A DNA stretch of 34,648 bases from an uncultured Gemmatimonadales bacterium (lineage in GTDB: Bacteria > Gemmatimonadota > Gemmatimonadetes > Gemmatimonadales > GWC2-71-9). Below the pieces are notes generated by a model. It did no database searches. It was not told the origin of the DNA and saw nothing but the letters and a program-made list of their open reading frames with translations. The stretch lies in contig CAVYSW010000004.1 in assembly GCA_963771275.1 (NCBI GenBank), forward strand, positions 1-34,648, given 5' to 3'. Position numbers and translations under genes: made by a program. Positions 6,385-31,379 of this stretch are shown here, in pieces; position 1 is the stretch's first letter, and every line of letters starts with the position of its first letter.

Positions 6385-6450
6385 AACGCAGAGCCGCACA
6401 ACCGGTACAACAGCGTAGTCGCCTCTGCGATCTCTGCGTGCTCCGCGGTG
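6385..6450. repeat. 9-nt-period CGCAGAG inverted repeat element directly after the rarA stop
   Basis: AACGCAGAG (6385-6393) opposite CTCTGCGAT CTCTGCGTG CTCCGCGGT (6423-6449); same family as 29895-30161. Confidence 0.7.
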
Positions 6451-7819
6451 TTACTCGGGTGCCTTCTTCTTGATACTCGCCCACCACGCCAGCCGCTCCC
6501 CGATCGTCTTCTCGAACCCGCGGTCGGTGGGCTCATACCACTTGGCGCCCCGCAGCACCTCGGGCAGGTATTCCTGCCCCGCCGCCAGCGCCTCCGGCTC
6601 GGCGTGGTCGTAGCGGTAGCCCGCGCCGTAGCCCAGGTCCTTCATCAACGCCGTGGGCGCGTTCCGGATGTGGAGCGGCACGGGCTCGGCCGGGTGCTCC
6701 CGGGCGGCCTCCATCGCCTGGCCCCAGGCCAGGTAGATCCGGTTCGACTTGGGGGCCGTGGCCATGTAGACCACCGCCTCGGCAAGCGCCAGCTCCCCCT
6801 CCGGCGAGCCGAGGAAGTGGTACGTGTCCTTGGCGGCCAAGGCCAATGACAGCGCCCGCGGGTCCGCGAGCCCGATGTCCTCGGCCGCCATCCGCACCAC
6901 CCGCCGCGCCACGTACAGCGGGTCCTCCCCTCCCACAATCATCCGGGCGAGCCAGTACAGGGCCCCCTCCACATCGCTGCCCCGTACGGCCTTGTGGAGC
7001 GCGGAAATGACGTTGTAGTGCTCCTCCCCCGACTTGTCGTATTTCGGGAGCCGCTTGGCGAGGACGGCTTCGAGAACCTCGAGTGAAAGGGGAAAAGTGA
7101 ACAGTGAAAAGTCGGCTGCGGTGTAGGTCGCGATTCCCTCGATCGCATTCAGCACCCGGCGCGCGTCCCCATCTGCCACGCGCACGAGACGGTCCACCGC
7201 GTCACTCGGAGAGCCAAGCCTCGACGTTCGTTTCACTTTTCACTTTTCTCTTTTCACTCGCCGGCAGTCCCACCTCGGCAAACGCCCGCCGAACGATCAC
7301 CGCCAGATCCGCTTCCGTGAGGGGTTCCAGCACGTACACCTGGAGCCTGGAGAGCAGCGCCCCCGTGAGCTCGAAGCTCGGGTTCTCGGTCGTGGCGCCG
7401 ATCAGCGTGATGATGCCCTGCTCCACCCACGGCAGAAACGCGTCCTGCTGCGCCTTGTTGAACCGGTGGATCTCGTCGCAGAACATGATCGTCCCACGCC
7501 CCTCGAGCCGGAGCCGCTCCTGCGCCTGCTTGATGATCTCCCGCACCCGCGGCACGCCTTCCGTGACCGCGCTGAACGGCTCGAACACCTTGTCGGTGTG
7601 CTTGGCGATCAGGTAGGCGAGCGTGGTCTTGCCGCACCCCGGCGGGCCCCAGAAGATGATGCTCGGCACCTCGCCGCGCTCGATCGCCTGCCGGAGCGGC
7701 TTCCCCTCGCCCAGCAGGTGGCGCTGCCCCACGAACTCCGCCAGGGCTTGGGGCCGGAGCCGGGAGGCCAGGGGCTCGTGGGAGTCGGACTCGAACAGCG
7801 AGGGCTCGGAGTGGGTCAT
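6451..7819 (-). CDS. rarA: Replication-associated recombination protein A (MgsA/RarA AAA+ ATPase); one frameshift near 7205
   Basis: EPLASRLRP, Walker A GPPGCGKTT, DEIHRFNKAQQD, GATTENPSF, DGDARR, ISALHKAVRGSD, EDIGLADP, VPLHIRNAPT; joins ORFs 7202..7864 and 6451..7236. Confidence 0.95.
7082..7258. repeat. Intragenic inverted pair of GTGAAAA heptamer arrays inside rarA
   Basis: 7082-7111 GTGAAAA-like units and 7231-7258 TTTTCAC units; translated as FSLFTFPLSL and SEKRKVKSE. Confidence 0.9.
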
Positions 7820-7820
7820 G

Positions 7821-7897
7821 GGTGAACAGTAAGAAGTGAAAAGTGAAAAGTGAAAAGTGAACACGTATGGAGCGACTTTTCACTTTTCACTTTTCAC
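7821..7897. repeat. Inverted heptamer array pair at the lhgO|rarA junction
   Basis: AGTGAAA x4 plus 2 degenerate units (7821-7862), about 14 nt spacer, TTTTCAC x3 (7877-7897); supplies the lhgO C-terminus VKSEK and its TGA stop. Confidence 0.95.
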
Positions 7898-9088
7898 TCC
7901 GTCCACGACCAGGTCAGCGAAGCTCAGTGAGCACGTGAAGGCTGGCGACACCGCATTCAAGACGTGCGTGGAATTCGGGCCCGGCTCGATCACGAAGTCC
8001 ATCTCCAGCTCTCCCTTCTCCCGGTCGAACAGCTGCGCGCGGATGCCGTACTTGTCCGCCTTGACGAGGTCGTGGCTCGTGATCCGGGGCAGCATGCCGC
8101 GCGTGGCGCGCATGAACGCGGGCTTCAAGAGCCGCGGTGCCTCGGCGTGAAGGTAGTGACGAAAGCCGTTCGGATTCCGGACGTACTGCTGGAGGATCCG
8201 GCCGGTGATGGCGCCGAGGTCGCTCAGCGAAAGGTCCTCGAGCCCACGGTAGTTCTCCCGCCCGAACGCCGGCATGGCCGTGGGCCCAAAGTACACCGTG
8301 CCGGACACCGCCGTCGTGGCGTGCACGCCGAGGAATGGGAAGCGGAGGTCCGGCACGGGATAGATCAGCCCATTTACGGTGATCGGGCTCCCGGGCCGGA
8401 GCTTGTAGTAGAACCCGCGGAACGGGAGGATGCGGTAGCGCTCCCCGACCCCGAACGCGTGGGCGACCTTGTCGGCGTGCGCGCCGGCGGCGTTGATCAG
8501 GTGGCCGTAGCGGTAGGTGGTGCCGGCCGCCGTCACCGTGCGCGAGCGGGCGTCGGGCACGGCGACCTCGCCCAACCGCACCTGGACCCCGCCCGCCGTG
8601 ATCTCCTTGGCCACGTGCTCCACCACCGCCACCGGGTCCAGCACGGCCGTGGCGGGATTGTAGAGCCCGCGCCCGTCCGCCGAATGGGCGTCCGGTTCCA
8701 CGCGGCGGATCTCCGCCTCGTCGATCAGCCGGAAATCGGCGCCGTTGGCCCGCCCCCGCGCCTGCAGCGTCTCGAGCCGGCCGCTGTCTTTGCGATCGAG
8801 CGGGATGATCAGCTTCCCCACCCGCTTGATCGGCAGGCCGTGCTCGTCGCAGTACGCCGCCAGCCGCCTCCCGCCCTCGGCGCAGATCCGCCCCTTGAGC
8901 GACCCCGCGCCGTAGTAGATCCCCGAGTGGATCACCCCGGAGTTCCGGCCCGAGGCGTGCGCCGCGAGCCGCGGCTCCTTCTCGAATACGACGATCGAGG
9001 CGTCGGGGTACCGCAGCCGCAGGGCACGGGCGATGGTGAGCCCGACGATGCCGGCGCCGATTACGGCGAAATCAACGGAAGTGGGCAT
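7880..9088 (-). CDS. lhgO: L-2-hydroxyglutarate oxidase family FAD-dependent oxidoreductase
   Basis: VIGAGIVGL, EKE..LAAHASGRNSGVIHSGIYY, IYPVPDLRFPFLGVH, GIRAQ, HVLNAVSPAFT. Confidence 0.9.
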   Translation of the reverse strand: MPTSVDFAVIGAGIVGLTIARALRLRYPDASIVVFEKEPRLAAHASGRNSGVIHSGIYYGAGSLKGRICAEGGRRLAAYCDEHGLPIKRVGKLIIPLDRKDSGRLETLQARGRANGADFRLIDEAEIRRVEPDAHSADGRGLYNPATAVLDPVAVVEHVAKEITAGGVQVRLGEVAVPDARSRTVTAAGTTYRYGHLINAAGAHADKVAHAFGVGERYRILPFRGFYYKLRPGSPITVNGLIYPVPDLRFPFLGVHATTAVSGTVYFGPTAMPAFGRENYRGLEDLSLSDLGAITGRILQQYVRNPNGFRHYLHAEAPRLLKPAFMRATRGMLPRITSHDLVKADKYGIRAQLFDREKGELEMDFVIEPGPNSTHVLNAVSPAFTCSLSFADLVVDGVKSEK

Positions 9089-9591
9089 GAGTGAAAAGTG
9101 AAAAGTGAAGAGTGAAAAGGCGGGGATTCATCACGCTCCGCGATGGTTTGGTTAGTCCGTACCTTGTGGCCGCCCGCAATGTACTGCTCATGTACAAGCT
9201 ACGGTCACTGAAGGTGTGGGGTGCCGCCAGCCGGCTGGCGCGGGAGGCCTATCGGCTCACGCTCACTCGCCCCCTCGACCGGCATTTCTCGCTGGCCGAC
9301 CAGATTCGGCGGGCGGCCATCTCCATCCCGGCGAATCTCGCCGAGGGCTACGGGCTCGGCACGACGCCTCAGCTGCTCCGCTGTACCCGCATCGCACTCG
9401 GCTCGGCCTACGAGCTGCAGATCCACCTCGAGCTCGTGCGCGATCTTGAGCTCGTCGAGACCGGCAAGAGCGCGACGGTAGAGCAACTGGCGGACGAGAC
9501 GATTCGGATGCTGATCGGCATGCTGAAGGGTCTGGGACGCAAGTAGTCACCCCGCTCACCCTTTTCACTTTTCACTTTTCACTTTTCACCC
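9089..9591. mobile_element. Putative intervening element: four-helix-bundle gene bracketed by inverted heptamer arrays
   Basis: GTGAAAA x4 (9091-9118) and TTTTCAC x4 (9562-9589) fill the ZIP|lhgO junction; no transposase or target-site duplication seen, so mobility is inferred only. Confidence 0.5.
9190..9546 (+). CDS. Four helix bundle protein (23S rRNA intervening-sequence protein / Avd-like family)
   Basis: 118 aa: LKVW..A..LA...Y.LT...P....FSLADQIRRAAISIPANLAEGYG...IALGSAYEL...L.L..DL; antisense to the surrounding genes. Confidence 0.93.
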   Translation: MYKLRSLKVWGAASRLAREAYRLTLTRPLDRHFSLADQIRRAAISIPANLAEGYGLGTTPQLLRCTRIALGSAYELQIHLELVRDLELVETGKSATVEQLADETIRMLIGMLKGLGRK

Positions 9592-10308
9592 AATTCCCAC
9601 CGCCTCCACGATCTGCTTCGTCAAGAAGAACGCTCCCGCGCCCAGGAAGAACGCCACCGGCAGTCGCCACCCCCGCTTGCCCTGGAACTCCGGCACCAGG
9701 TTCGACGCCGCGACGTAGATCGTGACGCCCGCCGAGAGGGCAAGGCCGTGCTCGGTGAGCACGCCGACGGTATCGGTGAGCAGCACGCCGAGCACGGTGG
9801 CAAGGCCGAGCAGCGCGGCGCTGCCCACGGCACGGGTCGTCGACGTGCCGCCCGCCACCTGGATGCTCGAGATCGTGACGCCTTCGGGCAGCTTGTGCAG
9901 GAAGATCGCGAGGAACAGCAGCACGCCGAGCTGGTTGCTCACCGCGAACCCGCTGGCGATCGCGACCCCGTCGAAGAACGTGTGGAGCAGGAGCCCGATC
10001 AAGGCCGAGATGCCGGCCGCGTGCGACACCGAATGGGTCTCGACGCCGAAGTGGAAGTGCGGCGTGAGCGTGTGCTGGGTGAGGTGAACGAGCAGATAGC
10101 CGAGCAGGATGAACCCCGCGGCATTTGCCCCGCCAATGGACAGCGCGTGCGGCACCATCTCGGTGAGGCTCACCGCCAGCATGTAGCCCGCCCCGAACGC
10201 CACGAACCCCTCGATCACGGCGAGCCCGAACCGGGCGCTCCGCGCCACGGCGAGCCCGCCCGCGACGTTGGCGGCGGCGGCGATCAGCGCATAGAAGACG
10301 GGCGTCAT
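9586..10308 (-). CDS. ZIP family metal transporter
   Basis: Hydrophobic 240 aa from MTPVFYAL; GLLLHTFFDGVAI, AIFLHKLPEG, His-rich loop, IYVAASNLVPE; ATGA overlap with cca. Confidence 0.92.
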   Translation of the reverse strand: MTPVFYALIAAAANVAGGLAVARSARFGLAVIEGFVAFGAGYMLAVSLTEMVPHALSIGGANAAGFILLGYLLVHLTQHTLTPHFHFGVETHSVSHAAGISALIGLLLHTFFDGVAIASGFAVSNQLGVLLFLAIFLHKLPEGVTISSIQVAGGTSTTRAVGSAALLGLATVLGVLLTDTVGVLTEHGLALSAGVTIYVAASNLVPEFQGKRGWRLPVAFFLGAGAFFLTKQIVEAVGIG

Positions 10309-11604
10309 GGGGCGCTGGGCGGGGTCGCGGGCCCCGGCGGCTCCGACGCGCCCGACGGCCGCGAGGTGCGGCGCGACCGGCGCGCGGCGGGCAGCGGCAG
10401 CTCGGCCGTGATCCGCGTGGCGGCGCGGAGCAGCGCCTCCCGCGTGTTCAGCTCGGGGTGCACCAGCACGAGGTCGAGCAGAGCCTCCAGCACGATCCCG
10501 ATCTCCGGCCCCTCGGTCATCCCGATCGCAAGGACGTCGGTGCCGGTGACCGCGAGATCGCCGATGCTGAGCGGCGCGTGCGAGGCGCGGACCCGGGCGA
10601 CGACGTCCGCCAGCTCGGTCCCCCACCCTTCGGCCTGCGCGATCGCCACCAGGTCGTCCGCCGCCGGCCCGACGTCCACCAGCCACTCGCGCACCGCGAG
10701 ATCGGTCATCACCGTGGGCCAGGCATCACGGCACTCGCCGATCCGCCTGCCCGCGCTCGATCTCGGCGTTGGAGCAGCGGAGACGCGCGAGGGTGGTTGC
10801 GGGATCGGACGACAAGAACGACGTGACGAGAACGGGATCCCGCGGCATGAACCTATCCACCACTGCGAAGTCCCCTTTCACTTTTCTCTTTTCACTTTTC
10901 ACTATCTCCGGGAGCCACGACTCCAGGGCTCCAATCTCAGCCCACAATCGCACCAGCTCCGCCGGGCTCCTTGCGCCCGTCAGTCCCTTGAACCACTCGT
11001 CCCGCACCCGCTCGGCCGACAGGTGCTCGAGGCCGGCGACCTCCGCGCGCGCCGCCTCCCACGTGGCCGGCTCGATCACGAAGTGGAACCGCGCCGCGAA
11101 CCGGAGCGCGCGCACGATCCGCAGATAGTCCTCGCGGAACCGCTGGCGCGGCTCGCCCACCGCCCGGATCACCTTGGCCGCGAGGTCGCGCTCGCCGCCG
11201 AACGGGTCGCGCCACTCGTGGCGTATCGGGTGGTAGGCGATCGCGTTGATCGTGAAGTCGCGCCGGGCCAGGTCGTCCTCGAGCGCCACGCCAAATTGGA
11301 CCTCGGCGTGGCGCCCGTCGGTCCGCACGTCCTTGCGGAACGTGGTCACTTCGTGCGCCGCGCCGGTCTCGTCCATCACCGCCACCGTGCCGTGCTCCAC
11401 GCCGATCGGGATCGTCCGCCGGAACAGCCGCCGCACCACGTCTGGGGTGGCCGCCGTCGCGAGGTCGAAGTCCTTGTTCGGGATGCCGAGCAGGTTGTCC
11501 CGTACCGCGCCCCCGACGCACCACGTCGCGTGGCCGGCTTCCTCGAGTCGACGGGCGATGGCGACGACGGGGGCGGGAATCGGGAGCGAAGGCGGGAAGG
11601 TCAT
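10305..11604 (-). CDS. cca: CCA tRNA nucleotidyltransferase; one frameshift near 10750
   Basis: VGGAVRD, KDFDLAT, EVTTFR, DLARRDFTINA, EDYLRIVRALRF, LSAERVRDEW; C-terminal DLAVTGTDV...GPEIG in ORF 10305..10712. Confidence 0.92.
10875..10903. repeat. Intragenic heptamer array in cca
   Basis: mRNA GTGAAAA GTGAAAA GAGAAAA GTGAAAG, translated VKSEKRKVKG. Confidence 0.9.
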
Positions 11605-11607
11605 GGA

Positions 11608-11753
11608 AGTGAAAAGTGAAAAGTGAAAAGGAGTGAAAAGTGATAAGTGAAAAGTGAAAAGGGAGAACGGGGCCGGCGTTGACGCAGGCCGCGGAGCATG
11701 GAGCACGAATCAGCAGTAATCAGTCTTTTCACTTTTCACTTTTCACTTTTCAC
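11608..11753. repeat. Inverted heptamer array pair at the SDR|cca junction
   Basis: AGTGAAA x3 + x4 (11608-11659) and TTTTCAC x4 (11726-11753); the SDR TGA lies in the outermost unit; the cca ATG follows 3 nt after the array. Confidence 0.95.
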
Positions 11754-12520
11754 CCACATAGCACCGCCCCCCCATTCACGTTCACGATCTCCCCCGTGAT
11801 ATGCCGCCCCAGCTTCGAGCAGAGAAACACGATCGGCCCGGCGATGTCGTCCGCGGTCGCGACGCGGCGGAGCGGGATCCCGGCCTCGATCCGGCGCCGG
11901 CCCTCACCCCCGTCGGCTTGGTAGGGGAGCGCCGCCATCTCGGTGTCCACCCAGCCGGGAGCCACGGAATTGACCGTTACCTCGGGCGCCGCCTCGATGG
12001 CGAGCGATTTCACCAGGGCGATCAGCGCCCCTTTGCTGGCGGCGTAGTCGGCGTGGAACCCCTCGCCGCGCTGGCCCGCCGTGCTGGTCACGATCACGAC
12101 CGACCCGCCGGGCCGGATCACCCGCAGCACCGCGCGGCAGCCGTAGAACACCGAGTCCAGGTTCACCTGCATCGTCTCGCGCCACTGCGCGTCGCTCATC
12201 CGGGCGACTGGAACCTCCTCGGGCACCCAGATCCCGGCATTCGCCACGAAGCAGTCGAGCCCGCCGAAGTCGCGCACGACGTCCGCGACGACCCGTTCGT
12301 TGGATTCGCGCGAAGCCAGGTCGAGCTGGTAGGCCCGGAATCGGCCTCCCCCCGACCCCCTCAGCTCCCCAAGCACCCGCTCCGCATCCGCCTTCCGCGA
12401 CCGGTACGTGAACGCCACATCAGCCCCGGCCTTGGCGAATAGCATGGCCGTCGCGGCGCCGATGCCGCGGGAGCCCCCGGTGATGAGGGCGACTTTCCCG
12501 GAGAGGTCGATCAACGGCAC
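11750..12520 (-). CDS. SDR family NAD(P)-dependent oxidoreductase (FabG-like)
   Basis: TGGSRGIG, VANAGI, YAASK, VNSVAPGWVDT, ITGEIVNVNGG; GAGGAG SD before GTG 12520. Confidence 0.93.
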   Translation of the reverse strand: MPLIDLSGKVALITGGSRGIGAATAMLFAKAGADVAFTYRSRKADAERVLGELRGSGGGRFRAYQLDLASRESNERVVADVVRDFGGLDCFVANAGIWVPEEVPVARMSDAQWRETMQVNLDSVFYGCRAVLRVIRPGGSVVIVTSTAGQRGEGFHADYAASKGALIALVKSLAIEAAPEVTVNSVAPGWVDTEMAALPYQADGGEGRRRIEAGIPLRRVATADDIAGPIVFLCSKLGRHITGEIVNVNGGAVLCG

Positions 12521-12560
12521 GGGTGGTTGCTCTCCTCGCGCAGGGGCAGCTCCGTGAGTG

Positions 12561-12677
12561 AGTGAAAAGTGAAAAGTGAAAAGTGAAAAGAAGCCACTTG
12601 GCAAGCTACAGGGCCACCGGGCTGGCAACGAGAATCGTGCGGAGCGGACTTTTCACTTTTCACTTTTCACTTTTCAC
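12561..12677. repeat. Inverted heptamer array pair at the PHP phosphatase|SDR junction
   Basis: AGTGAAA x4 (12561-12588) and TTTTCAC x4 (12650-12677) abutting the TAG stop. Confidence 0.95.
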
Positions 12678-13459
12678 TAGCTCCACTTCTCGCCCTTCGC
12701 ATGCAGCCACCCACGAACACGCTCGGCGAAGCCGCCTTGGATTCGAGCTTTCGGCACGGGAACCAGCTTCCCGTCGCCAATCACCGCCCGCGGGTTCTCC
12801 ACGGTGAGCCACATGGCGGCGTCGGCGGCACCGTGCCGCTCGAGGAATCGCCGGCCGGTGGCGAGGCTGCGCCGGTCGCCGTGGTTGTCGGCGGCGAGCA
12901 CGTCCGCCAGGCCCGCCCGCAGCAGGCGGCGGGCAAGCTCCCCCCGGCTCGTGGGGCGCGTAATCTCGGTGGCGTCCACCTGGATCGCGGCGCCGACCGT
13001 GCGCCACAGATCCACCGAACGGGCCGAGCACAGGCGGTACCGCTCCGGGTGTGCGACGATCGGGACCAGCCCCTTGGAGCTGATCGCCTGGAGCACGTCG
13101 GCCACCAGGTGCCCCATCACGGACAACGGAAACTCCACAAGGTAGTAGCGCGAGCCGGCCAGCGCGTACCGCCGGTCTCCCAGCGCCTCAGCCGGGAGCG
13201 GCCGGTCCAGCATGATCTCGAAGCCTGGGTGCAACCGGATCCCCGGCGGGGCGGCCGCCTTGAGCTCCGCCAGCCGCTCGTCCCGCACGCGGATGGCGTC
13301 CTCCCCCTTGGTGGCGATCTCGCCCGCCCTGAGGTGCGGCGTCATGACGATGTCGGTGATGCCCGCCTCGGCGAGGGTCGTGAGCACCCCCACCGATTGG
13401 GCGAGGGAGCGCGAGCCGTCGTCCACCCCCGGGAGGAGGTGGGAGTGGAGGTCAATCAC
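12677..13459 (-). CDS. CpsB/CapC/YwqE family PHP protein-tyrosine phosphatase
   Basis: MIDLHSHLLPGVDDGS, VMTPH, YYLVEFP, PIVAHPERY, AADNH. Confidence 0.92.
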   Translation of the reverse strand: MIDLHSHLLPGVDDGSRSLAQSVGVLTTLAEAGITDIVMTPHLRAGEIATKGEDAIRVRDERLAELKAAAPPGIRLHPGFEIMLDRPLPAEALGDRRYALAGSRYYLVEFPLSVMGHLVADVLQAISSKGLVPIVAHPERYRLCSARSVDLWRTVGAAIQVDATEITRPTSRGELARRLLRAGLADVLAADNHGDRRSLATGRRFLERHGAADAAMWLTVENPRAVIGDGKLVPVPKARIQGGFAERVRGWLHAKGEKWS

Positions 13460-13464
13460 GGCGC

Positions 13465-13511
13465 CCCCTCTCCCACTCTGCCCCTCTCCCCCTCACCCCC
13501 TCACCCCTCAC
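13465..13511. repeat. 8-nt-period G-rich tandem repeat (mRNA GTGAGGGG/GAGAGGGG) filling the hyp|PHP junction
   Basis: CCCCTCTC CCACTCTG CCCCTCTC CCCCTCAC CCCCTCAC CCCTCAC on +; upstream TGA stop lies in the first mRNA unit. Confidence 0.8.
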
Positions 13512-13834
13512 CGGATCTCCCCCAGCCGTTGGGGCTCCGTCTCCCCCACCCATTCGCAGGCCAGCGTGATCAGGGCATCGGCGGCGAGCAGGGTGAGGGC
13601 GGTGTCGTGCGTCGGGGGGCCGGCCTTGGCGGCGGCGAGGAGATCTTCCGCGACCGCCCGGAGCTCCTCCTCGAACGGCCGCTGACGCACGCTGCACGCT
13701 GTACGGCTGTTACGCTGCACGGCGTCAGCCTCACGCTGCACGCTACACGCTGCACGCGCGGTTATGATTCGGGCCCGCAACGCCGGCGGGGCTTCCGCCA
13801 GGCGCTCATCGAGCCAGCCCTCGGGGTCCGTCAC
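13508..13834 (-). CDS. Hypothetical protein downstream of alaS, with an internal heptamer-repeat insertion
   Basis: GTGA overlap with the alaS stop; WLDERLAEAPPALRARI...ALTLLAADALITLACE helical protein. Confidence 0.75.
   Translation of the reverse strand: MTDPEGWLDERLAEAPPALRARIITARAACSVQREADAVQRNSRTACSVRQRPFEEELRAVAEDLLAAAKAGPPTHDTALTLLAADALITLACEWVGETEPQRLGEIR
13685..13757. repeat. Intragenic CACGCTG heptamer repeats
   Basis: Two blocks of CACGCTG/CACGCTA-like units; translated RAACSVQRE...TACSVRQ. Confidence 0.8.
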
Positions 13835-16557
13835 GCGCCGGCGCCGAGCGCCGCACGGACGATGTCCGGTATGCGGCGCCGGGTTTCGTCCAGCTTGGTC
13901 GGATCGCCGATCCCGCCCGAGGCGAAGTGCGGGCGCCCCCCGCCGCTCCCCCCGCTGATCGCGGCGATCGCCTTCACCAGGTCTCCGGCGCGAATGCCGC
14001 GCGAGACGAGGTCGTCCGTCACCGCCACGTGGATCCCCGGCCGCTCGCCGCCGGTGAGCAGCACCTTGATCGCCCGCTTCTGCTGCTCGCGGAACGTGTC
14101 CATCAGCATCCCGATCTGCGCCCGGTCCGACACGGGGGATTCGTCCAGCACGAGGGAAACGTCGCCCACGGCCACGGTGCTGCCGTCTGCCCCCTGCCCC
14201 CCTCCCCCTCTACGCAGCAGCTCTTCAATCTGCTTGTCCAGCCGCCGTCGCTCCTCGATCAACGACTCGATCTTCTTCACCAGATGCTCGGGGTTGGCGC
14301 GCAGCAGGTCCGACGCGGCGGCGATCCGCTCGTCGAGCTGCTTCACGAGATCGTAGGCCCCGGGGCCCGTCACCGCCTCGATGCGGCGCACGCCCGCCGC
14401 GACACCCGACTCGTGCGTGAAATGGAACAGCCCGATCTGGCCGGTGCTCCGCACGTGGGTGCCGCCGCACAGCTCGACCGAGAGCCCCGGCATGTCGACC
14501 ACGCGCACCACGTCGCCGTACTTCTCGCCGAACAGCGCCATGGCGCCCTTGGCAAGCGCCTCGCGGTACGGCAGCTCGTAGGTCGCGAGCTCCACGTTGA
14601 GCCAGATGCCGTGGTTCACCTCGGCCTCGATGCGCTTGAGCTCCGCCTCGCCGATTGGGCCGTGATGCGAGAAGTCGAACCGCAGGCGGTCGGGCGCCAC
14701 CACCGAGCCCGCCTGCCGCACGTGGTCGCCCAGCACGTCGCGCAGCGCCGCATGGACCAGGTGGGTGGCGCTGTGGTTCCGCTCGATGTCGCGGCGCCGC
14801 TGCTCGGCCACCGCCGCCTCGACCGGCGTGGGCTCGAAGTCGCCTGCGTAGGGCCCACCCACGATCTGGCGCCCTTCCGCCTTGTGGACGTCGTCGACCT
14901 GGAGCTCCCACCCCTCGCCGCGCACCACCCCGGTGTCGCTCACCTGCCCGCCCGACTCGGCGTAGAACGGATTCTCGTGCAGCACCATCTCCAGCCGGTC
15001 GTCCGCCCGGCGGAACGCCAGGATGTCGGTCTCGGCCGTGGTGGTGTCGTAGCCCACGAACTTCTGGCGCTTGCGCGGGGTCACCCGCACCCATTCTTGC
15101 CCGGTCGCACGCCGAACCCGGTCAACTATCTCCGCCTTCTCTGAGAACCTCGCGGCATCCGCACCCCGAACGTTCCGCGACCGCCGCTGCTGCTCCTCCA
15201 GCGCCAGCTCGAAGCCCGCGACGTCCACCTTCCGCCCGCGCTCGGCGGCGATCAGCTCGGTCAAGTCGAGCGGGAACCCGTACGTGTCGTACAGCTTGAA
15301 CGCGTCGGCGCCGCTCACCGCGCCGCTCGATTCCGTCAGGATCTCTTCCAGGCGCGTGAGCCCGCCCTCGATCGTCTCGAGGAAGCGCTCTTCTTCGATC
15401 CGCGTCACCTTCTCGATCTGCTCGCGCCTGGTCTTGAGCTCGGGGTAGACGTCCTCGAGCCCGTCCACCACCGCCATGGCGAGCGGCGTCAGCGTCGGCT
15501 CGGAGCGCCCCATGAGATACGCGTGGCGCACCGCGCGCCGGAGAATCCGCCGCAGCACGTAGCCGCGGCCGTCGTTGGACGGGTACACACCGTCGGCCAA
15601 CAGGAACGCCACGGCGCGCGCGTGGTCGGCGAGCACGCGGAAGCCGGCACCGAGCGGGCCGGGATCGTAGCGGCGGCCCATCACCTCTTCCGCCCGCCGG
15701 ATGATCGGCATGAACAGGTCGGTGTGGAAGTTCGAGTCCACGCCCTGCATCACTGACGCGATCCGCTCGAGGCCGGCCCCGGTGTCCACCGACGGCGCCG
15801 GGAGCGGCGTCCGCGAGCCATCCTTCGCCTGGTCGAACTGCATGAAGACCAGGTTCCAGATCTCCAGGAGCTGCCCTGATTCCGCCAGCTGGACGAACTG
15901 GGGGAGGGTGGGCGGATGAACGATGGCCGATGGCCGACCGCCGACAGCCGATTGCCGATGGCCGATGGCCGAATCAGGGGGGGGGCTGGGTCGGCTATCG
16001 GCCATCGGCCATCGGCCAACGTCGACATAGATCTCCGAGCACGGCCCACACGGCCCGGTGTCCCCCATCTGCCAGAAGTTGTCCTTGTCGCCCAGGCCGT
16101 AGATCCGGGATTCGGCGATGCCCGTCACCGCGCGCCACAGCTTCCGCGCCTCGTCGTCGGAGTGGTGCACGGTGACGTAGATGCGGTCGGGATGGATGCC
16201 GAGGTACTGCTCCGACGTCACCCACTCCCAGCCGAACGCGATCGCGTCCTTCTTGAAGTAGTCGCCGAACGAGAAGTTGCCCAGCATCTCGAAGAACGTG
16301 TGGTGCCGGGCGGTGTGCCCCACCTGTTCCAGGTCGTTGTGCTTGCCGCCGGCGCGGACGCACTTCTGGACGGTGACGGCGCGGGTGTAGTCGCGGTGCT
16401 CGAGACCCTGGAACACGCGCTTGAACTGCACCATGCCGGCATTGGTGAACAGCAGCGTCGGGTCCCCGTGGGGCACGAGCGACGCCGAGGCCACGGGCCG
16501 GTGGCGGCGCGCGGCGAAGAAGTCGACGAACGACTGGCGGATGGCGGAAGCGTGCAT
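13831..16557 (-). CDS. alaS: Alanine--tRNA ligase
   Basis: DPTLLFTNAGMVQFK, RHHTFFEMLGNFSFGDYFK, GPCGPCSEI, EIWNLVFMQ, NHSATH, ELCGGTHV, GVRRIEAVTG, GGGRP. Confidence 0.99.
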   Translation of the reverse strand: MHASAIRQSFVDFFAARRHRPVASASLVPHGDPTLLFTNAGMVQFKRVFQGLEHRDYTRAVTVQKCVRAGGKHNDLEQVGHTARHHTFFEMLGNFSFGDYFKKDAIAFGWEWVTSEQYLGIHPDRIYVTVHHSDDEARKLWRAVTGIAESRIYGLGDKDNFWQMGDTGPCGPCSEIYVDVGRWPMADSRPSPPPDSAIGHRQSAVGGRPSAIVHPPTLPQFVQLAESGQLLEIWNLVFMQFDQAKDGSRTPLPAPSVDTGAGLERIASVMQGVDSNFHTDLFMPIIRRAEEVMGRRYDPGPLGAGFRVLADHARAVAFLLADGVYPSNDGRGYVLRRILRRAVRHAYLMGRSEPTLTPLAMAVVDGLEDVYPELKTRREQIEKVTRIEEERFLETIEGGLTRLEEILTESSGAVSGADAFKLYDTYGFPLDLTELIAAERGRKVDVAGFELALEEQQRRSRNVRGADAARFSEKAEIVDRVRRATGQEWVRVTPRKRQKFVGYDTTTAETDILAFRRADDRLEMVLHENPFYAESGGQVSDTGVVRGEGWELQVDDVHKAEGRQIVGGPYAGDFEPTPVEAAVAEQRRRDIERNHSATHLVHAALRDVLGDHVRQAGSVVAPDRLRFDFSHHGPIGEAELKRIEAEVNHGIWLNVELATYELPYREALAKGAMALFGEKYGDVVRVVDMPGLSVELCGGTHVRSTGQIGLFHFTHESGVAAGVRRIEAVTGPGAYDLVKQLDERIAAASDLLRANPEHLVKKIESLIEERRRLDKQIEELLRRGGGGQGADGSTVAVGDVSLVLDESPVSDRAQIGMLMDTFREQQKRAIKVLLTGGERPGIHVAVTDDLVSRGIRAGDLVKAIAAISGGSGGGRPHFASGGIGDPTKLDETRRRIPDIVRAALGAGA
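15919..16020. repeat. In-frame palindromic GCCGATG heptamer insertion in alaS
   Basis: About 8 GCCGA(TG) units (15919-15974), G9-containing loop, 4 (CA)TCGGC units (15991-16016); translated GRWPMADSRPSPPPDSAIGHRQSAVGGRPSAIV. Confidence 0.92.
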
Positions 16558-16587
16558 AGAGGAGGAACTTAACTAGCACCGGGAGAA

Positions 16588-16672
16588 AGTGAAAAGTGAA
16601 AAGTGAAAGGTGAAAAGGGAACCCGAGACCGGGGGGGGGACCACTTTTCACGTTTCACTTTTCACTTTTCAC
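16588..16672. repeat. Inverted heptamer array pair at the wecB|alaS junction
   Basis: AGTGAAA-type x4 (16588-16615), spacer with G9, TTTTCAC-type x4 (16645-16672). Confidence 0.95.
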
Positions 16673-16681
16673 TCAGCCCCA

Positions 16682-17778
16682 CTACCGATACTCTGCCCCG
16701 TCGAGAATCACTCCCACAATCCGCTCCGCCGTCTTCCCGTCCCACCGCTCGATCTGCGCTTTGCGGTAACTGGAACTGGCGAGGGCCTCGCGCGCCGCGG
16801 TCTGGAGTGCCTCCTGGGTCGGGGCAACCAAGCGATTCGTCCCGTGGGTGCATGTAACCGGGCGCTCGGTGTTGGGTCGGACGGTCAGGCACGGGACGCC
16901 GAGGAACGAGGTCTCCTCCTGCAGACCGCCCGAGTCCGTGATCACCAACGCCGCCTGCTCCACGAGGCCCAGCATGTCGAGGTAGCCGATCGGGTCCATG
17001 AGCCGGAGGTGGCCACTGGAGGGAGCTTCGAAGCCCAGCCTGTCGATTCGGTCGCGTGTGCGGGGATGCACGGGGAACAGCACCGTCAGGTCGCGGCCGA
17101 GGACCTCCAAGGCACCCAGGAGCCCCCGCAGGGCCACCGGCTCATCCACGTTGGCCGGACGGTGCAAGGTCACCACGGCATACCGCTGACCGCTAACCGC
17201 TAACCGCATCGGCGTGTTTCGCTCCCGCGCAGCGGGCAGGGCGTGGACGAGCGAGTCGATCATGATGTTGCCGACAAAGTGGATGCGGTCCGCGGGAACC
17301 CCTTCGGCCTTGAGGTTCGCGTCGGCATCCCGCGAGGGCGTGAACAGGAGATCCGCCAGGCGGTCCGTGACCACGCGGTTGATCTCCTCCGGCATGGTCC
17401 AATCGCGGCTGCGGAGACCAGCCTCGACGTGCCCCACACGGATGCCGAGCTTGGCGGCGACGAGGGCCGCAGCGACGGTCGAGTTGACGTCGCCGTAGAC
17501 CAGGATCACGTCGGGCTTCTGCTCGAGCAGCACGGGCTCGAGGCGCTGCATGATCAGCGCGGTCTGCTGCGCGTGCGAGCCAGAGCCCACGTCCAGATTG
17601 CAGTCAGGTGCCGGGATCCCCAGCTCGTCGAAGAACGACCCTGACATCTCGGGGTCGTAGTGCTGGCCGGTGTGGAGGATGACGTGCCGCGCATCAGAGC
17701 GCCCCGCGAGCGGCGGGCCAGCGGGGCGAGCTTCATGAAGTTGGGGCGGGCGCCGACGACCGAGAGGAGGGTCGTCAT
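16682..17778 (-). CDS. wecB: UDP-N-acetylglucosamine 2-epimerase (non-hydrolysing); frameshift near 17712
   Basis: VVGARPNFMKLAP, HTGQHYD, VYGDVNST, HVEAGLRS, MPEEINR, VTLHRPANVD, TDSGGLQEE, TERP. Confidence 0.95.
17182..17207. repeat. Short intragenic GCGGTTA heptamer repeat in wecB
   Basis: mRNA GCGGTTA GCGGTTA GCGGTCA GCGGT, translated RLAVSGQR. Confidence 0.7.
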
Positions 17779-17782
17779 GACC

Positions 17783-18571
17783 CTACTTGAAGATCGCGAT
17801 GAGTCCTGCGATGGCGGCAGGGATGGTGACGATGGCGAGCAACACGCGCGTGCTGCCCTCGAAGCTGCCGATTCCGCGCGGCTTCGCCCCGACGACGATC
17901 TGGTCGCCCGCGCGCACGCTCAGCTGATCGAGCGTGCTGCCGCCCGCGATGGCCCGCTGCATCGCCGAGGCATCCCACACCCGCTGGTTCTGGCGCAGGA
18001 TCGTAATGTCACTCAGCTTCGCGTTCGGGGTGAATCCCTGCGCGGCCTGCAGCGCATCCGAGATCACGATGTCCGTCGGGAGCGTGTAGAAGCCCGGCCG
18101 GGCGACCTCACCCTGAATGGACAGCCGGATGTACGATCGGGCCTGGACCGCCGGGTCCCGGACGTACCGGGCGATCTGCGTCGTGAGATAGCCCTGGATC
18201 TCCGAGCGGAGCACGCCCTTGAGCGAGACGGCACCGAGCGTGGGGAGCACGACCTCGGGTCCCGCCACCACCGTGAACGTGTCGGTGAGCGCCGTCTCCC
18301 GCTCGACCGCAAGCCGGATGCGGTCACCGACTTGGAAGTCGCCGTTCTCGAGCCGCTGATGGACGCCCTCCGCCAATTGTCTTGCTTGCTCGCGCAGAAA
18401 CTCGCTGTAGGCGGGGGACTCGGCCGACGCCTGATAGCGGCGATAGAGAGACTCGAGCGACTCGCGCGTCGCATAGACCCGTCGGGGATCCCATTCCGTC
18501 TGTTGCGCCAGCGCGGGCCCGGCAAGACCGGTGAGCAGCAGCATCGATGCGAGCAAGCGCAGCTTGATCAT
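17783..18571 (-). CDS. Polysaccharide biosynthesis/export (Wza/SLBB domain) protein
   Basis: Signal peptide MIKLRLLASMLLLTGLAGPALA; FQVGDRIRL, LPTLGAVSLKG, IQGEVARPGFY, VRAGDQIVV. Confidence 0.85.
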   Translation of the reverse strand: MIKLRLLASMLLLTGLAGPALAQQTEWDPRRVYATRESLESLYRRYQASAESPAYSEFLREQARQLAEGVHQRLENGDFQVGDRIRLAVERETALTDTFTVVAGPEVVLPTLGAVSLKGVLRSEIQGYLTTQIARYVRDPAVQARSYIRLSIQGEVARPGFYTLPTDIVISDALQAAQGFTPNAKLSDITILRQNQRVWDASAMQRAIAGGSTLDQLSVRAGDQIVVGAKPRGIGSFEGSTRVLLAIVTIPAAIAGLIAIFK

Positions 18572-29894: not shown

Positions 29895-30161
29895 CACCGC
29901 AGAGAACGCAGAGCCCGACTTGACAGCTGTGCACCGCAGAGTACGCAGAGAACGCAGAGGCCTCATCTGCTGCGGGAAGATCTACTGTCTCTGCGTCCAT
30001 GATCTGTCCGCAGAGCACGCAGAGCCGGTGACAGCTGCACCGCAGAGTGCGCAGAGACCGCAGGGTCTCATGCTACTGCAGGAGCACCTACTGTCTCTGC
30101 GTTCTCTGCGATCTCTGCGGTTTCTCAGCTTTCTCTGCGGTTTCTCAGCTTTCTCTGCGGT
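29895..30161. repeat. 9-nt-period CGCAGAG complex inverted/direct repeat between convergent epsI and GT2
   Basis: Terminal IR ACCGCAGAGAA/TTCTCTGCGGT; about 95 nt imperfect direct repeat (29898-29996 vs 30009-30102); exact 20 nt duplication 30121-30160. Confidence 0.9.
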
Positions 30162-31379
30162 TCAGCCGCCACACACTCTCACTTGCGCCCCGGCCCTTGC
30201 GGGACCAGCGCTCCCCGAGACGGCGCGCCGAGTGGGCTCCCAGGTCGGGGTCATGTCCCCGCGCAGGGCGTTGATCCACGCGTGGATGCCAGCGATCAGA
30301 CCCCAGATCACATAGGCGGGGATCGCGACGATATGCGGCAGCCGTTGATCAGGTCTGAACCACCCGATGGCGGCGCACAAGCTGGCGAAAACGAACGCCG
30401 CCGTAATTGGGAGCCGTAGCGAAGGAACCTCGCCAGCGGCGAGCAGCGCGCCCGCCATCCCCAGTACCACGGCCCAAGGCACCAGCCAGCGCGCCAGCTT
30501 GTGGCTGATCACCATCCAGGAGAAGCGCCCGTGACGCAGCGGGTTCATCAGGTGGCGCTTGTAGAACAGCGTCTGGAGGCCTCGGCTCATCGTACGCACC
30601 TTGCGCCGGTACTCGCGCCGGAGCGATAGCGCGCGCGGCACGAAGCAGACCGCGTCGCGCACCGACACCGAGCGGTACCCGTGCTCGTGGGCGATCAGTG
30701 GTGCGGCGAAGTCGCGGCTCAGCGCTTCGGGCACGATCTCTTTGTGCAACTCGATCCGGCTCGCGTAGAAGCAGCCGGATGCCCCCACGATGCCCCCAGC
30801 GGCCGTCTCGAGATCGCGCACCCACATCTCGTAGCCCACATACCCGGACTCCCCGACGTTCGCATCGTCCTCCACCCGCGCGACACTGACGTCCCGCCCG
30901 GATGCGACGCCGACCGACGGGTCGCGGAACGCTGCGATGAGCGGCTTCAGGGCCCCGGGGCGGAGCCTGACGGACGCGTCCGTGTTGACGACGACTCCCC
31001 CCCGGAGGTGCGCTCGGGCCGCGTTTTCAGCGGCGGTCTTCCCCCCGCGCTCCGGCAGGCGGATCAGCTCGACTCCGCGGGCTTCGTAGGATCGCACGAT
31101 CTCGTCGGTCCGGTCGGTGGAGGCGTCGGACACCACGAGCATCTGCAACCGGTCGCGTGGGTAATCGAGCTCGAGCAAGCGGTCCAGGGTCGCGGCGATC
31201 GCCGCCTCCTCGTTGTACGCCGGGACCGTGATGCTCACCGCCGGCCAGTCGGGGGTGGCGCGAGCGCCCACGCCGTCGCGCCTGCCACGGGCGATCAGCC
31301 AGAGGAGGACGGGGTAGCCGGCATACGCGTACAACGGCACCGCCGCCGCCGCGGCAAGGACGATCCAGAGGATCACCAT
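30162..31379 (-). CDS. Glycosyltransferase family 2
   Basis: N-terminal TM, VSITVPAYNEE, VVSDASTDRT, GKTAA, VNTDA, RRKVR, C-terminal TMs. Confidence 0.92.
   Translation of the reverse strand: MVILWIVLAAAAAVPLYAYAGYPVLLWLIARGRRDGVGARATPDWPAVSITVPAYNEEAAIAATLDRLLELDYPRDRLQMLVVSDASTDRTDEIVRSYEARGVELIRLPERGGKTAAENAARAHLRGGVVVNTDASVRLRPGALKPLIAAFRDPSVGVASGRDVSVARVEDDANVGESGYVGYEMWVRDLETAAGGIVGASGCFYASRIELHKEIVPEALSRDFAAPLIAHEHGYRSVSVRDAVCFVPRALSLRREYRRKVRTMSRGLQTLFYKRHLMNPLRHGRFSWMVISHKLARWLVPWAVVLGMAGALLAAGEVPSLRLPITAAFVFASLCAAIGWFRPDQRLPHIVAIPAYVIWGLIAGIHAWINALRGDMTPTWEPTRRAVSGSAGPARAGAQVRVCGG

Follow-up and report, generated by a model that had tools for sequence, protein, structure and literature searches.

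The window analysed here is a 34,648-nt stretch of contig C4 of a 3.86-Mb genome (11 contigs, roughly 70% GC) from an uncultured Gemmatimonadales bacterium. Between its genes for a ZIP-family metal transporter and for L-2-hydroxyglutarate oxidase (lhgO) lies a cassette (positions 9090-9589) that occupies the entire intergenic gap. It consists of a gene for a four-helix-bundle protein of the PF05635/TIGR02436 family, antisense to both neighbours, with an array of four GTGAAAA units on one side and its inverted counterpart on the other. Copies of this repeat occur throughout the genome, so that gene and repeat family appear to belong together. An initial annotation had described a hairpin-bounded, antisense four-helix-bundle cassette at this junction, and array detection with TRF, profile search and RNA folding bear that description out. 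Below, the source genome is coded G000 and its contigs C#, the genomes compared with it are coded G###, and loci or contigs of relatives L###; the positions of all features are collected in Table 1.

When positions 9075-9605 were folded as RNA, the two arrays paired on either strand, whether the minimum-energy or the centroid structure was taken. The predicted stem comprises 22 + 9 pairs with one mismatch (31 bp), followed by a 5-nt bulge and then by a CGGGG/CCCCG extension, in agreement with the annotated pairing of about 30 bp with one mismatch plus that extension. Folding z-scores were −6.95 and −8.14, with none of 100 shuffles folding equally well, and a two-unit 15-mer had 41 matches in the window at ≤2 mismatches, as compared with 0 in 100 shuffles. 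As had also been annotated, the loop contains no transposase, either among its open reading frames (ORFs) or by Pfam, whose sole match there is PF05635, and no direct repeat marks a target-site duplication at the two outer borders. The cassette therefore lacks what defines an insertion sequence or miniature inverted-repeat transposable element, namely a transposase, or terminal inverted repeats together with a target-site duplication. Rfam models applied to 6400-17800 returned no rRNA and only sub-threshold hairpin matches to eukaryotic microRNA models, and a scan of 8950-9750, which carries no evidential weight, returned no sigma-70-like promoter. Without the cassette ZIP and lhgO would be adjacent, as was correctly stated at the outset, with the caveat that ZIP takes its stop codon from the arm.

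Read contigs from four runs were compared with the assembly. A contig of run X2 spans 8906-9335 with 1 difference and one of run X3 spans 9301-9451 with none; run X1 leaves the gene interior uncovered, but no contig bridges that region either. Read-contig joints linking 9116-9121 to 9553-9568 were considered as empty-site alleles and rejected, as their flanking sides are merely 21-29 nt of array and the intervening letters are the loops of other GTGAAAA hairpins (C10:828736, C9:58211).

The loop ORF (9190-9546) matches Pfam PF05635 ('23S rRNA-intervening sequence protein') at 95 bits (cut-off 33.8; residues 6-110 on profile positions 2-106) and TIGR02436 ('four helix bundle protein') at 90.5 bits (cut-off 24), which makes its product a whole-domain member above the curated cut-offs. 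This family was first found in 23S rRNA intervening sequences, the elements to which the initial annotation had likened the cassette. One solved structure was matched, 2gsc_A (E = 1.3e-11), an entry of five chains of one sequence, and the loop protein is probably also a pentamer. Compared with the copy in a close relative (locus L079; 97% identical), the gene has 28 synonymous and 4 non-synonymous codon differences, the corresponding ratios being 50:11 for ZIP and 19:6 for lhgO. By this count the loop gene is under purifying selection and is therefore maintained.

The cassette arms belong to a large family of (GTGAAAA)n arrays, with 13 members in the window and 43 in the genome. These form 15 inverted pairs, all 15 with the polarity 5′-(GTGAAAA)n...(TTTTCAC)n-3′, and their loops measure 11-118 nt except in the gene-bearing cassette, where the loop is 441 nt. 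Such hairpins stand at most gene junctions of the string formed by rarA, lhgO, ZIP, cca and a short-chain dehydrogenase/reductase (SDR) gene; the gene-less ones in the window occupy the rarA/lhgO and cca/SDR junctions and two more. With tandem 7-nt units that recur through the genome and are mostly intergenic, the arrays belong to the class of heptanucleotide tandem repeats. We considered whether the gene-less hairpins are deletion products of the cassette and found this unsupported, since the resemblance of five loops to the cassette interior was matched by 22 to 187 of 200 shuffles. Two 63-nt loops, at 11662-11724 in the window and at C10:830064-830126, are homologous though their sites are unrelated (score 71, whereas other loop pairs score 13-29). 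Beside the 3′ arm, a short motif that contains GAATC recurs in several loops and in the cassette leader (9120-9189), which is itself conserved in part in L079. We also observed hybrid doublets, in which a GTGAAAA-type array is joined by one of another family (C3:770527-770548, C3:64008-64034, C3:1740439-1740463 and C10:827482-827542); the partners are of GCCGTTA type, of ACGCTGC type, the 9-mer CTGCCGCTT, or GGGAAAC in direct order, and each family keeps its polarity.

GTGAAAA is one of several units with a gene of its own. A profile search of all six-frame ORFs of G000 recovered four strong PF05635 genes, every one of them between inverted arrays (units GTGAAAA, GTGTAGC, TAGCCGA and TTCAATG), as well as a fifth, weak match on C7 that has no arrays; Rfam detected no rRNA in the vicinity of these four. 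When the seven most abundant heptamer families in G000 were compared with the cassette units, six proved to be the same as one of them or to differ by a single mismatch; the seventh, AAACGGG (15 arrays), is of the type found in the arms of the orthologous cassette of a same-genus relative. Altogether 199 arrays in G000 are within one mismatch of a cassette unit, with a modal copy number of 4 and a median length of 31 nt. For three families, arrays are concentrated within 10 kb of the cognate cassette (11 observed vs 0.27 expected, 4 vs 0.23, and 8 vs 0.17).

The history of the ZIP-lhgO junction was followed in other lineages. ZIP-lhgO synteny is common to only 1 of 30 species-level relatives, in which the site is filled, and further junction states, including an empty site, came from a metagenome scan. 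In the closest locus, L079 (ZIP 95%, lhgO 93% and four-helix-bundle protein 97% identical), the site is filled by the same cassette, and its arms are likewise GTGAAAA. At L042 and L040 (lhgO 68-73%, ZIP 78%) the cassette has GTGAAAC/GGGAAAC arms and a protein only 52% identical, and at L092 and L093 (lhgO 68-69%) it has GTGCGCT/GCGCACA-type arms and a protein 38-40% identical. L044 (lhgO 68%, ZIP 75%) has an empty junction, with no gene, no arrays and an 83-nt spacer that is unrelated and hence gives no means of placing the insertion point exactly. Wherever the site is filled, the arrays are flush with the ZIP stop and the lhgO start, and arm complementarity is kept in all five (50-54 pairs in the duplex fold). 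The five junction gene copies do not form one clade in a protein tree of 37 copies (approximately unbiased (AU) test, p = 0.005): those of L092 and L093 group with the TAGCCGA paralogue of G000 (support 100/99), and that of L042 groups with the GTGTAGC paralogue (support 92/82). Thus, the site was filled or refilled more than once, and the gene has been exchanged here, or copied elsewhere, within the history of the genus. The empty site that the initial annotation had proposed to look for in relatives was found at L044; the other sites proved to be filled, with the signs of refilling just described. A separate indel bounded by arrays was seen on L045, a contig 93-95% identical, where 1.7 kb (453-2207) with two ORFs, one seemingly exported and one membrane-bound, lies between lhgO and rarA at a position that holds only the 77-nt hairpin in G000.

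Arrays of the same families also lie inside housekeeping genes, where their units can be compared at fixed sites. The two GTGAAAA-family arrays of rarA flank 118 nt of native coding sequence with the conserved GDARR motif. L032 (same genus) and L045 (near-conspecific) each have rarA as a single open frame in which the arrays are translated; read in frame, the arrays of relatives are peptide inserts of 7-residue periodicity. Inverted arrays occur at or near the same two rarA sites in 10 of the 24 genomes with a rarA match (loci L181-L199 and L202), enclosing about 107-118 nt of native coding sequence, and their unit differs in nearly every genome. When these units were compared with the arms of PF05635 cassettes (≤1 mismatch, any rotation or strand), they matched a cassette arm of the same genome in 7 of 10 genomes, as compared with 5 of 90 cross-genome pairs; in one of the rows, that of G003, cassette and rarA are on different contigs of a 750-contig bin. 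L042 carries both a cassette and an lhgO-rarA hairpin of the same unit on a single contig. In G016 (L183 1010-1490) we observed that rarA is immediately preceded by a PF05635 cassette whose arms are GGGATTC/AATCCCG, and that the arrays inside rarA share this unit. As read from these assemblies, the comparison shows that the array unit at fixed sites turns over in step with the resident cassette.

The single in-frame array of cca, the gene for the CCA-adding enzyme, tells a similar story. About four units of AGTGAAA in G000 (10876-10903) correspond to CACGCTA and GCGCACA in two other lineages at the same site (loci compared, L079 219-250 and L042 630-658), and L044 has no array there (about 960-1000). 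The G000 array has an AGAGAAA variant exactly where the consensus unit would place an in-frame TGA. We observed that G000 and L079 diverge far more in the coding sequence around this array than in ZIP. Two of the array-bearing genes are broken in the G000 assembly: rarA is split by a 1-base insertion (about 7204-7206) into ORFs 7205-7864 and 6454-7236, the extra base being absent from contigs of two runs and the L045 frame being open, and cca is broken in the same way by a single C that L079 does not have (about 10735-10745). These frameshifts are either assembly indels or fresh pseudogenes. The longer ZIP ORF, reaching 10686, overlaps the 3′ part of cca.

The association was next examined in a census of 31 genomes of the order, G000 included, in which 26 have PF05635 matches and from which 30 PF05635 loci were fetched, the window's own among them. 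Complementary arrays of 7-, 8- or 9-nt units lie on both sides of the gene at 22 of the 30 loci. Arms of 8-nt units are found in 10 of the 12 array-bearing rows of one 13-row protein clade and in 0 of the 20 array-bearing rows outside it. The 8-nt period may be a single change on the tree; repeat period and protein appear to be inherited together, and the tree pattern indicates no more than that. Arms built of 7-nt units have a median of 31 nt and 4.4 copies, those built of 8-nt units a median of 26 nt and 3.2 copies, so that arm length looks more constant than unit count. The suggestion in the initial annotation that a pentamer binds one repeat unit per subunit is therefore unsupported. Units are also enriched in the genomes whose cassettes carry them. 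The tandem GTGAAAA pattern has 55 matches in G000 and at most 13 in any other of the 31 genomes; this comparison has no valid control, since reversing GTGAAAA yields a rotation of the same unit. The ACACCCT pattern has 27 matches in G026 and 10 in G028, both with cassette arms of this kind; two other genomes give 4 and 1 and the remaining 27 none, with controls at 0. Similarly, AGCCCCT has 66 matches in G020, whose cassette (L006) has such arms, while five further genomes yield no more than 6 each and 25 yield none. In G014, a relative without the gene, 304 kb contained 0 hairpin pairs.

Table 1. Positions of the cassette, its neighbours and other repeat arrays in the window.
Feature	Position	Strand	Description
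Left arm of cassette	9090..9119	+	(AGTGAAA)x4.3 by TRF, one variant unit; 1 nt from lhgO start codon (ATG)
Leader, arm to start codon	9120..9189	+	contains inner CGGGG (9121-9125), pairing with CCCCG (9550-9554)
Four-helix-bundle gene	9190..9546	+	118 aa, pI 9.9; PF05635 / TIGR02436; 2gsc_A match
Right arm of cassette	9561..9589	+	(CTTTTCA)x4.1 by TRF, perfect; complement of left arm; includes ZIP stop codon (TGA) 9586-9588 (minus strand)
lhgO, L-2-hydroxyglutarate oxidase gene, downstream cistron	7880..9088	-	NF008726, 337 bits; stop TGA inside next array (7875-7898)
ZIP-family metal transporter gene, upstream cistron	9586..10308	-	start set by alignment with relatives
Gene-less GTGAAAA hairpin, lhgO/rarA gap	7822..7898		(GTGAAAA)x5.7, 13-nt loop, (ACTTTTC)x3.4
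Gene-less GTGAAAA hairpin, cca start/upstream SDR gene	11607..11753		63-nt loop
Gene-less GTGAAAA hairpin	12561..12678		57-nt loop
Gene-less GTGAAAA hairpin	16586..16673		20-nt loop
Two in-gene GTGAAAA-family arrays in rarA	7231-7258 and 7082-7112	-	flank native coding sequence
Single array in CCA-adding enzyme gene	10876..10903	-	GTGAAAA family, in frame
Inverted CGATGGC/TCGGCCA pair	15921-16018		TAGCCGA-cassette family
(GCACGCT)x9.9 array	13687-13757		
CCCCCTCT 8-mers	13464-13512		
(ACCGCTA)x3.7 array	17182-17207		
Inverted 9-mers, CCGCAGAGA type	29897-30162		

With moderate confidence, we interpret the cassette as the copy that carries the gene in a system of cognate protein and repeat, and as a free-standing relative of those 23S rRNA intervening sequences that contain an ORF. 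It would represent a complete 'IVP cassette', that is, a functional gene in the loop of a long hairpin whose arms are inverted GTGAAAA arrays. Whichever strand is transcribed across the cassette, its arms would form about 31 bp of double-stranded RNA in the transcript, and the insert would be folded out of the cca-ZIP-lhgO-rarA message. In that message the 5′ arm would provide the ZIP stop codon and the 3′ arm would end at the lhgO start codon, so that both cistrons can stay intact. The arms would probably be cut by a double-strand RNase, a step that we infer by analogy with rRNA intervening sequences such as that of Coxiella. The basic, probably pentameric protein would recognise arrays of its own unit, both in its own arms and in the gene-less copies, and would act as a family-specific factor that retains and spreads arrays, preferentially near its own gene. 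Both the binding of protein to repeat and the manner in which arrays are made or copied are what we infer from the pattern of gene and arrays. The hybrid pairs (C3:770527, C3:64008 and C3:1740439) and the native sequence enclosed by the rarA pair lead us to speculate that the two arrays of a pair are deposited separately, one on each flank of a site, and that the hairpin is not copied as a whole.

Several observations weigh against this interpretation. The genomes compared share ancestry, so that cross-genome counts are not independent. Eight of the 30 PF05635 loci lack paired arms, three having a one-sided array and five having either no array close to the gene or no arrays on its two sides that can pair. 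G025 has 8 PF05635 genes of an array-less clade, yet 400 kb sampled from it contain 0 hairpin pairs; conversely, G022 has no PF05635 match, yet it has a few arrays, with 2 hairpin pairs in 232 kb, one of them convincing. Three fragmentary metagenome-assembled genomes (G004, G015 and G017) have no assembled cassette matching their rarA unit. Within G000 the TAGCCGA family does not cluster, with 0 arrays within 10 kb of its cassette vs 0.31 expected. The loop protein has no known catalytic motif, and G000 (96.7% complete) has no RVT_1 match that would indicate a reverse transcriptase, in a search that was positive in 3 of 14 control genomes.

Some of these observations fit another explanation, in which the arrays came first. 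Intercistronic hairpin repeats would have arisen by slippage or recombination and would act as mRNA stabilisers, processing sites or translation spacers, and the gene would play no part in their spread, being a mere resident of some hairpins or their RNA-binding regulator. The presence of hairpins at most junctions of the rarA-lhgO-ZIP-cca-SDR string, with stops in the 5′ arm and starts after the 3′ arm, is what such a role would predict, and so are the arrays of G022 and the want of a polymerase-like partner in G000; heptamer repeats are also described without a linked gene in other bacteria, in the accessible part of that account (PMC4679880). Nevertheless, we consider this origin unlikely, as PF05635 is the only gene found in array loops (all 4 strong copies in G000, besides the census loci), each paralogue has its own unit, and the repeat period follows the protein clade. 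At orthologous rarA sites, moreover, a different resident cassette goes with a different unit, and since the families are not homologous to one another, slippage or recombination could hardly swap units at a given position.

The initial annotation had itself regarded the cassette as a lone selfish insert without host function, rendered harmless because its hairpin loops it out of the ZIP-lhgO message as in an rRNA intervening sequence. A stem on both strands, the empty L044 site, junction copies that are not monophyletic, and the lack of transposase and duplication are all compatible with such an insert, and the Coxiella intervening sequence is described in the available portion of one report as a selfish element excised by RNase III (PMC4990558). 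However, this cassette is one of four, each with its own dispersed repeat family, and its hairpin family extends genome-wide. Purifying selection on the gene, and retention of a cassette at the junction down to 68% lhgO identity, are likewise at odds with a single insertion of this kind, which does not explain why gene-less arrays at fixed sites track the cassette unit. We therefore regard it as quite doubtful. The observation recorded in the initial annotation is thus confirmed in every detail, and its interpretation is partly supported.

A system akin to diversity-generating retroelements, in which an Avd-like protein and a reverse transcriptase write repeats from an RNA template, would accommodate the resemblance of PF05635 to Avd (noted in the accessible text of PMC10053308), and the fixed arm polarity and hybrid pairs would fit the addition of repeats at DNA ends; given the missing RVT_1 match and the absence of any template/variable repeat pair in what we saw of G000, we judge it very improbable. 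That simple-sequence repeats happen to flank a small gene by chance has only the general abundance of short repeats in GC-rich DNA to recommend it and can be dismissed in view of 41 matches where 0 are expected, z-scores of −7 to −8 and a layout repeated at 22 of 30 loci.

Returning to the cognate protein-and-repeat system, we offer a broader proposal tentatively, as a possibility that we do not hold to be probable: PF05635 proteins may be the specificity factors of a form of repeat writing that uses neither transposase nor reverse transcriptase, each paralogue specifying arrays of its own 7-9-nt unit, placed with fixed polarity on both sides of a site, which may enclose native sequence as it does in rarA, and renewed in place. 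Under this proposal, arrays at one position in related genomes would take on the unit of whichever cassette is resident. If true, this would account for the heptamer repeats of many phyla (the short tandemly repeated repetitive (STRR) sequences, TAACTGA repeats and long simple sequence repeats (SSRs)) and would assign a role to a very large 'unknown' family whose first members came from intervening sequences of rRNA. Two oddities would thereby be linked, the PF05635/Avd-like family, which is common but has no known role outside retroelements, and the tandem heptamer repeats of bacteria. G000, with four paralogues, four units and dozens of gene-less copies, is an unusually clean test bed. The arrays also matter for annotation, in that they provide genes with stop codons and border directly on start codons, introduce extra peptide loops into housekeeping enzymes, and interrupt assemblies made from short reads.

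The closest known counterparts of the cassette are ORF-bearing 23S rRNA intervening sequences, which Ralph and McClelland reportedly described in Leptospira in 1993. Both have a PF05635 ORF in the loop, terminal inverted repeats that form a long stem, no transposase and a length of about 0.4-0.5 kb. Unlike the rRNA elements, the cassette lies between protein-coding genes and is not inserted in a 23S helix, and its arms are tandem 7-nt arrays whose unit is shared with dozens of gene-less hairpins. The Coxiella burnetii 23S rRNA intervening sequence is described, in the part of the paper available, as a selfish element that is excised by RNase III and whose ORF is decaying (Warrier et al. 2016, PMC4990558), in contrast to the purifying selection on the cassette gene. 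Avd, an accessory protein of diversity-generating retroelements (PDB 4DWL), and Xcc0516 (PDB 2GSC), termed 'five four-helix bundles', are treated together in the accessible text of PMC10053308. The loop protein shares their fold by homology (the 2gsc_A match) and is basic; G000 differs from genomes with Avd retroelements in having no reverse transcriptase and no template/variable repeats, and the cassette is accordingly not classed as a diversity-generating retroelement.

Heptanucleotide tandem repeats are familiar from cyanobacteria as STRR sequences, and long SSRs were reportedly surveyed in bacteria by Mrazek and colleagues in 2007. The TAACTGA repeats of Beggiatoaceae, cyanobacteria and Bacteroidetes are presented, in the accessible portion of their description, as direct repeats with no linked gene (MacGregor 2015, PMC4679880), and the same portion makes no mention of a four-helix-bundle, intervening-sequence or S23 gene. 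The G000 arrays resemble these in having tandem 7-nt units in 2-6 or more copies, mostly intergenic near starts and stops and in some cases inside ORFs, but differ in coming as inverted pairs with a PF05635 gene in one hairpin per family. A full-text search, with most subscription journals outside its coverage, found no literature linking PF05635 proteins to tandem-repeat arms. Rickettsia palindromic elements are said to have been found inserted in frame in genes by Ogata and colleagues in 2000; the arrays in rarA and cca are similar in being repeat DNA that is tolerated and translated within housekeeping genes, and dissimilar in being tandem heptamers whose unit changes between related genomes at the same site. 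Finally, the REPIN-RAYT systems, which Nunvar in 2010 and Bertels and Rainey in 2011 reportedly described, pair doublets of repetitive extragenic palindromic (REP) sequences with a REP-associated tyrosine transposase (RAYT). The loop protein is a four-helix bundle without a transposase fold and thus no IS200/IS605-type tyrosine transposase, and the cassette arms are tandem short units as opposed to a unique palindrome, with arrays also in frame inside genes. In their organization, however, the two are alike: in each, a single-copy gene lies between hairpin repeats of its own, that repeat also occurs elsewhere as dispersed, gene-less intergenic doublets, and several such gene and repeat families share one genome.

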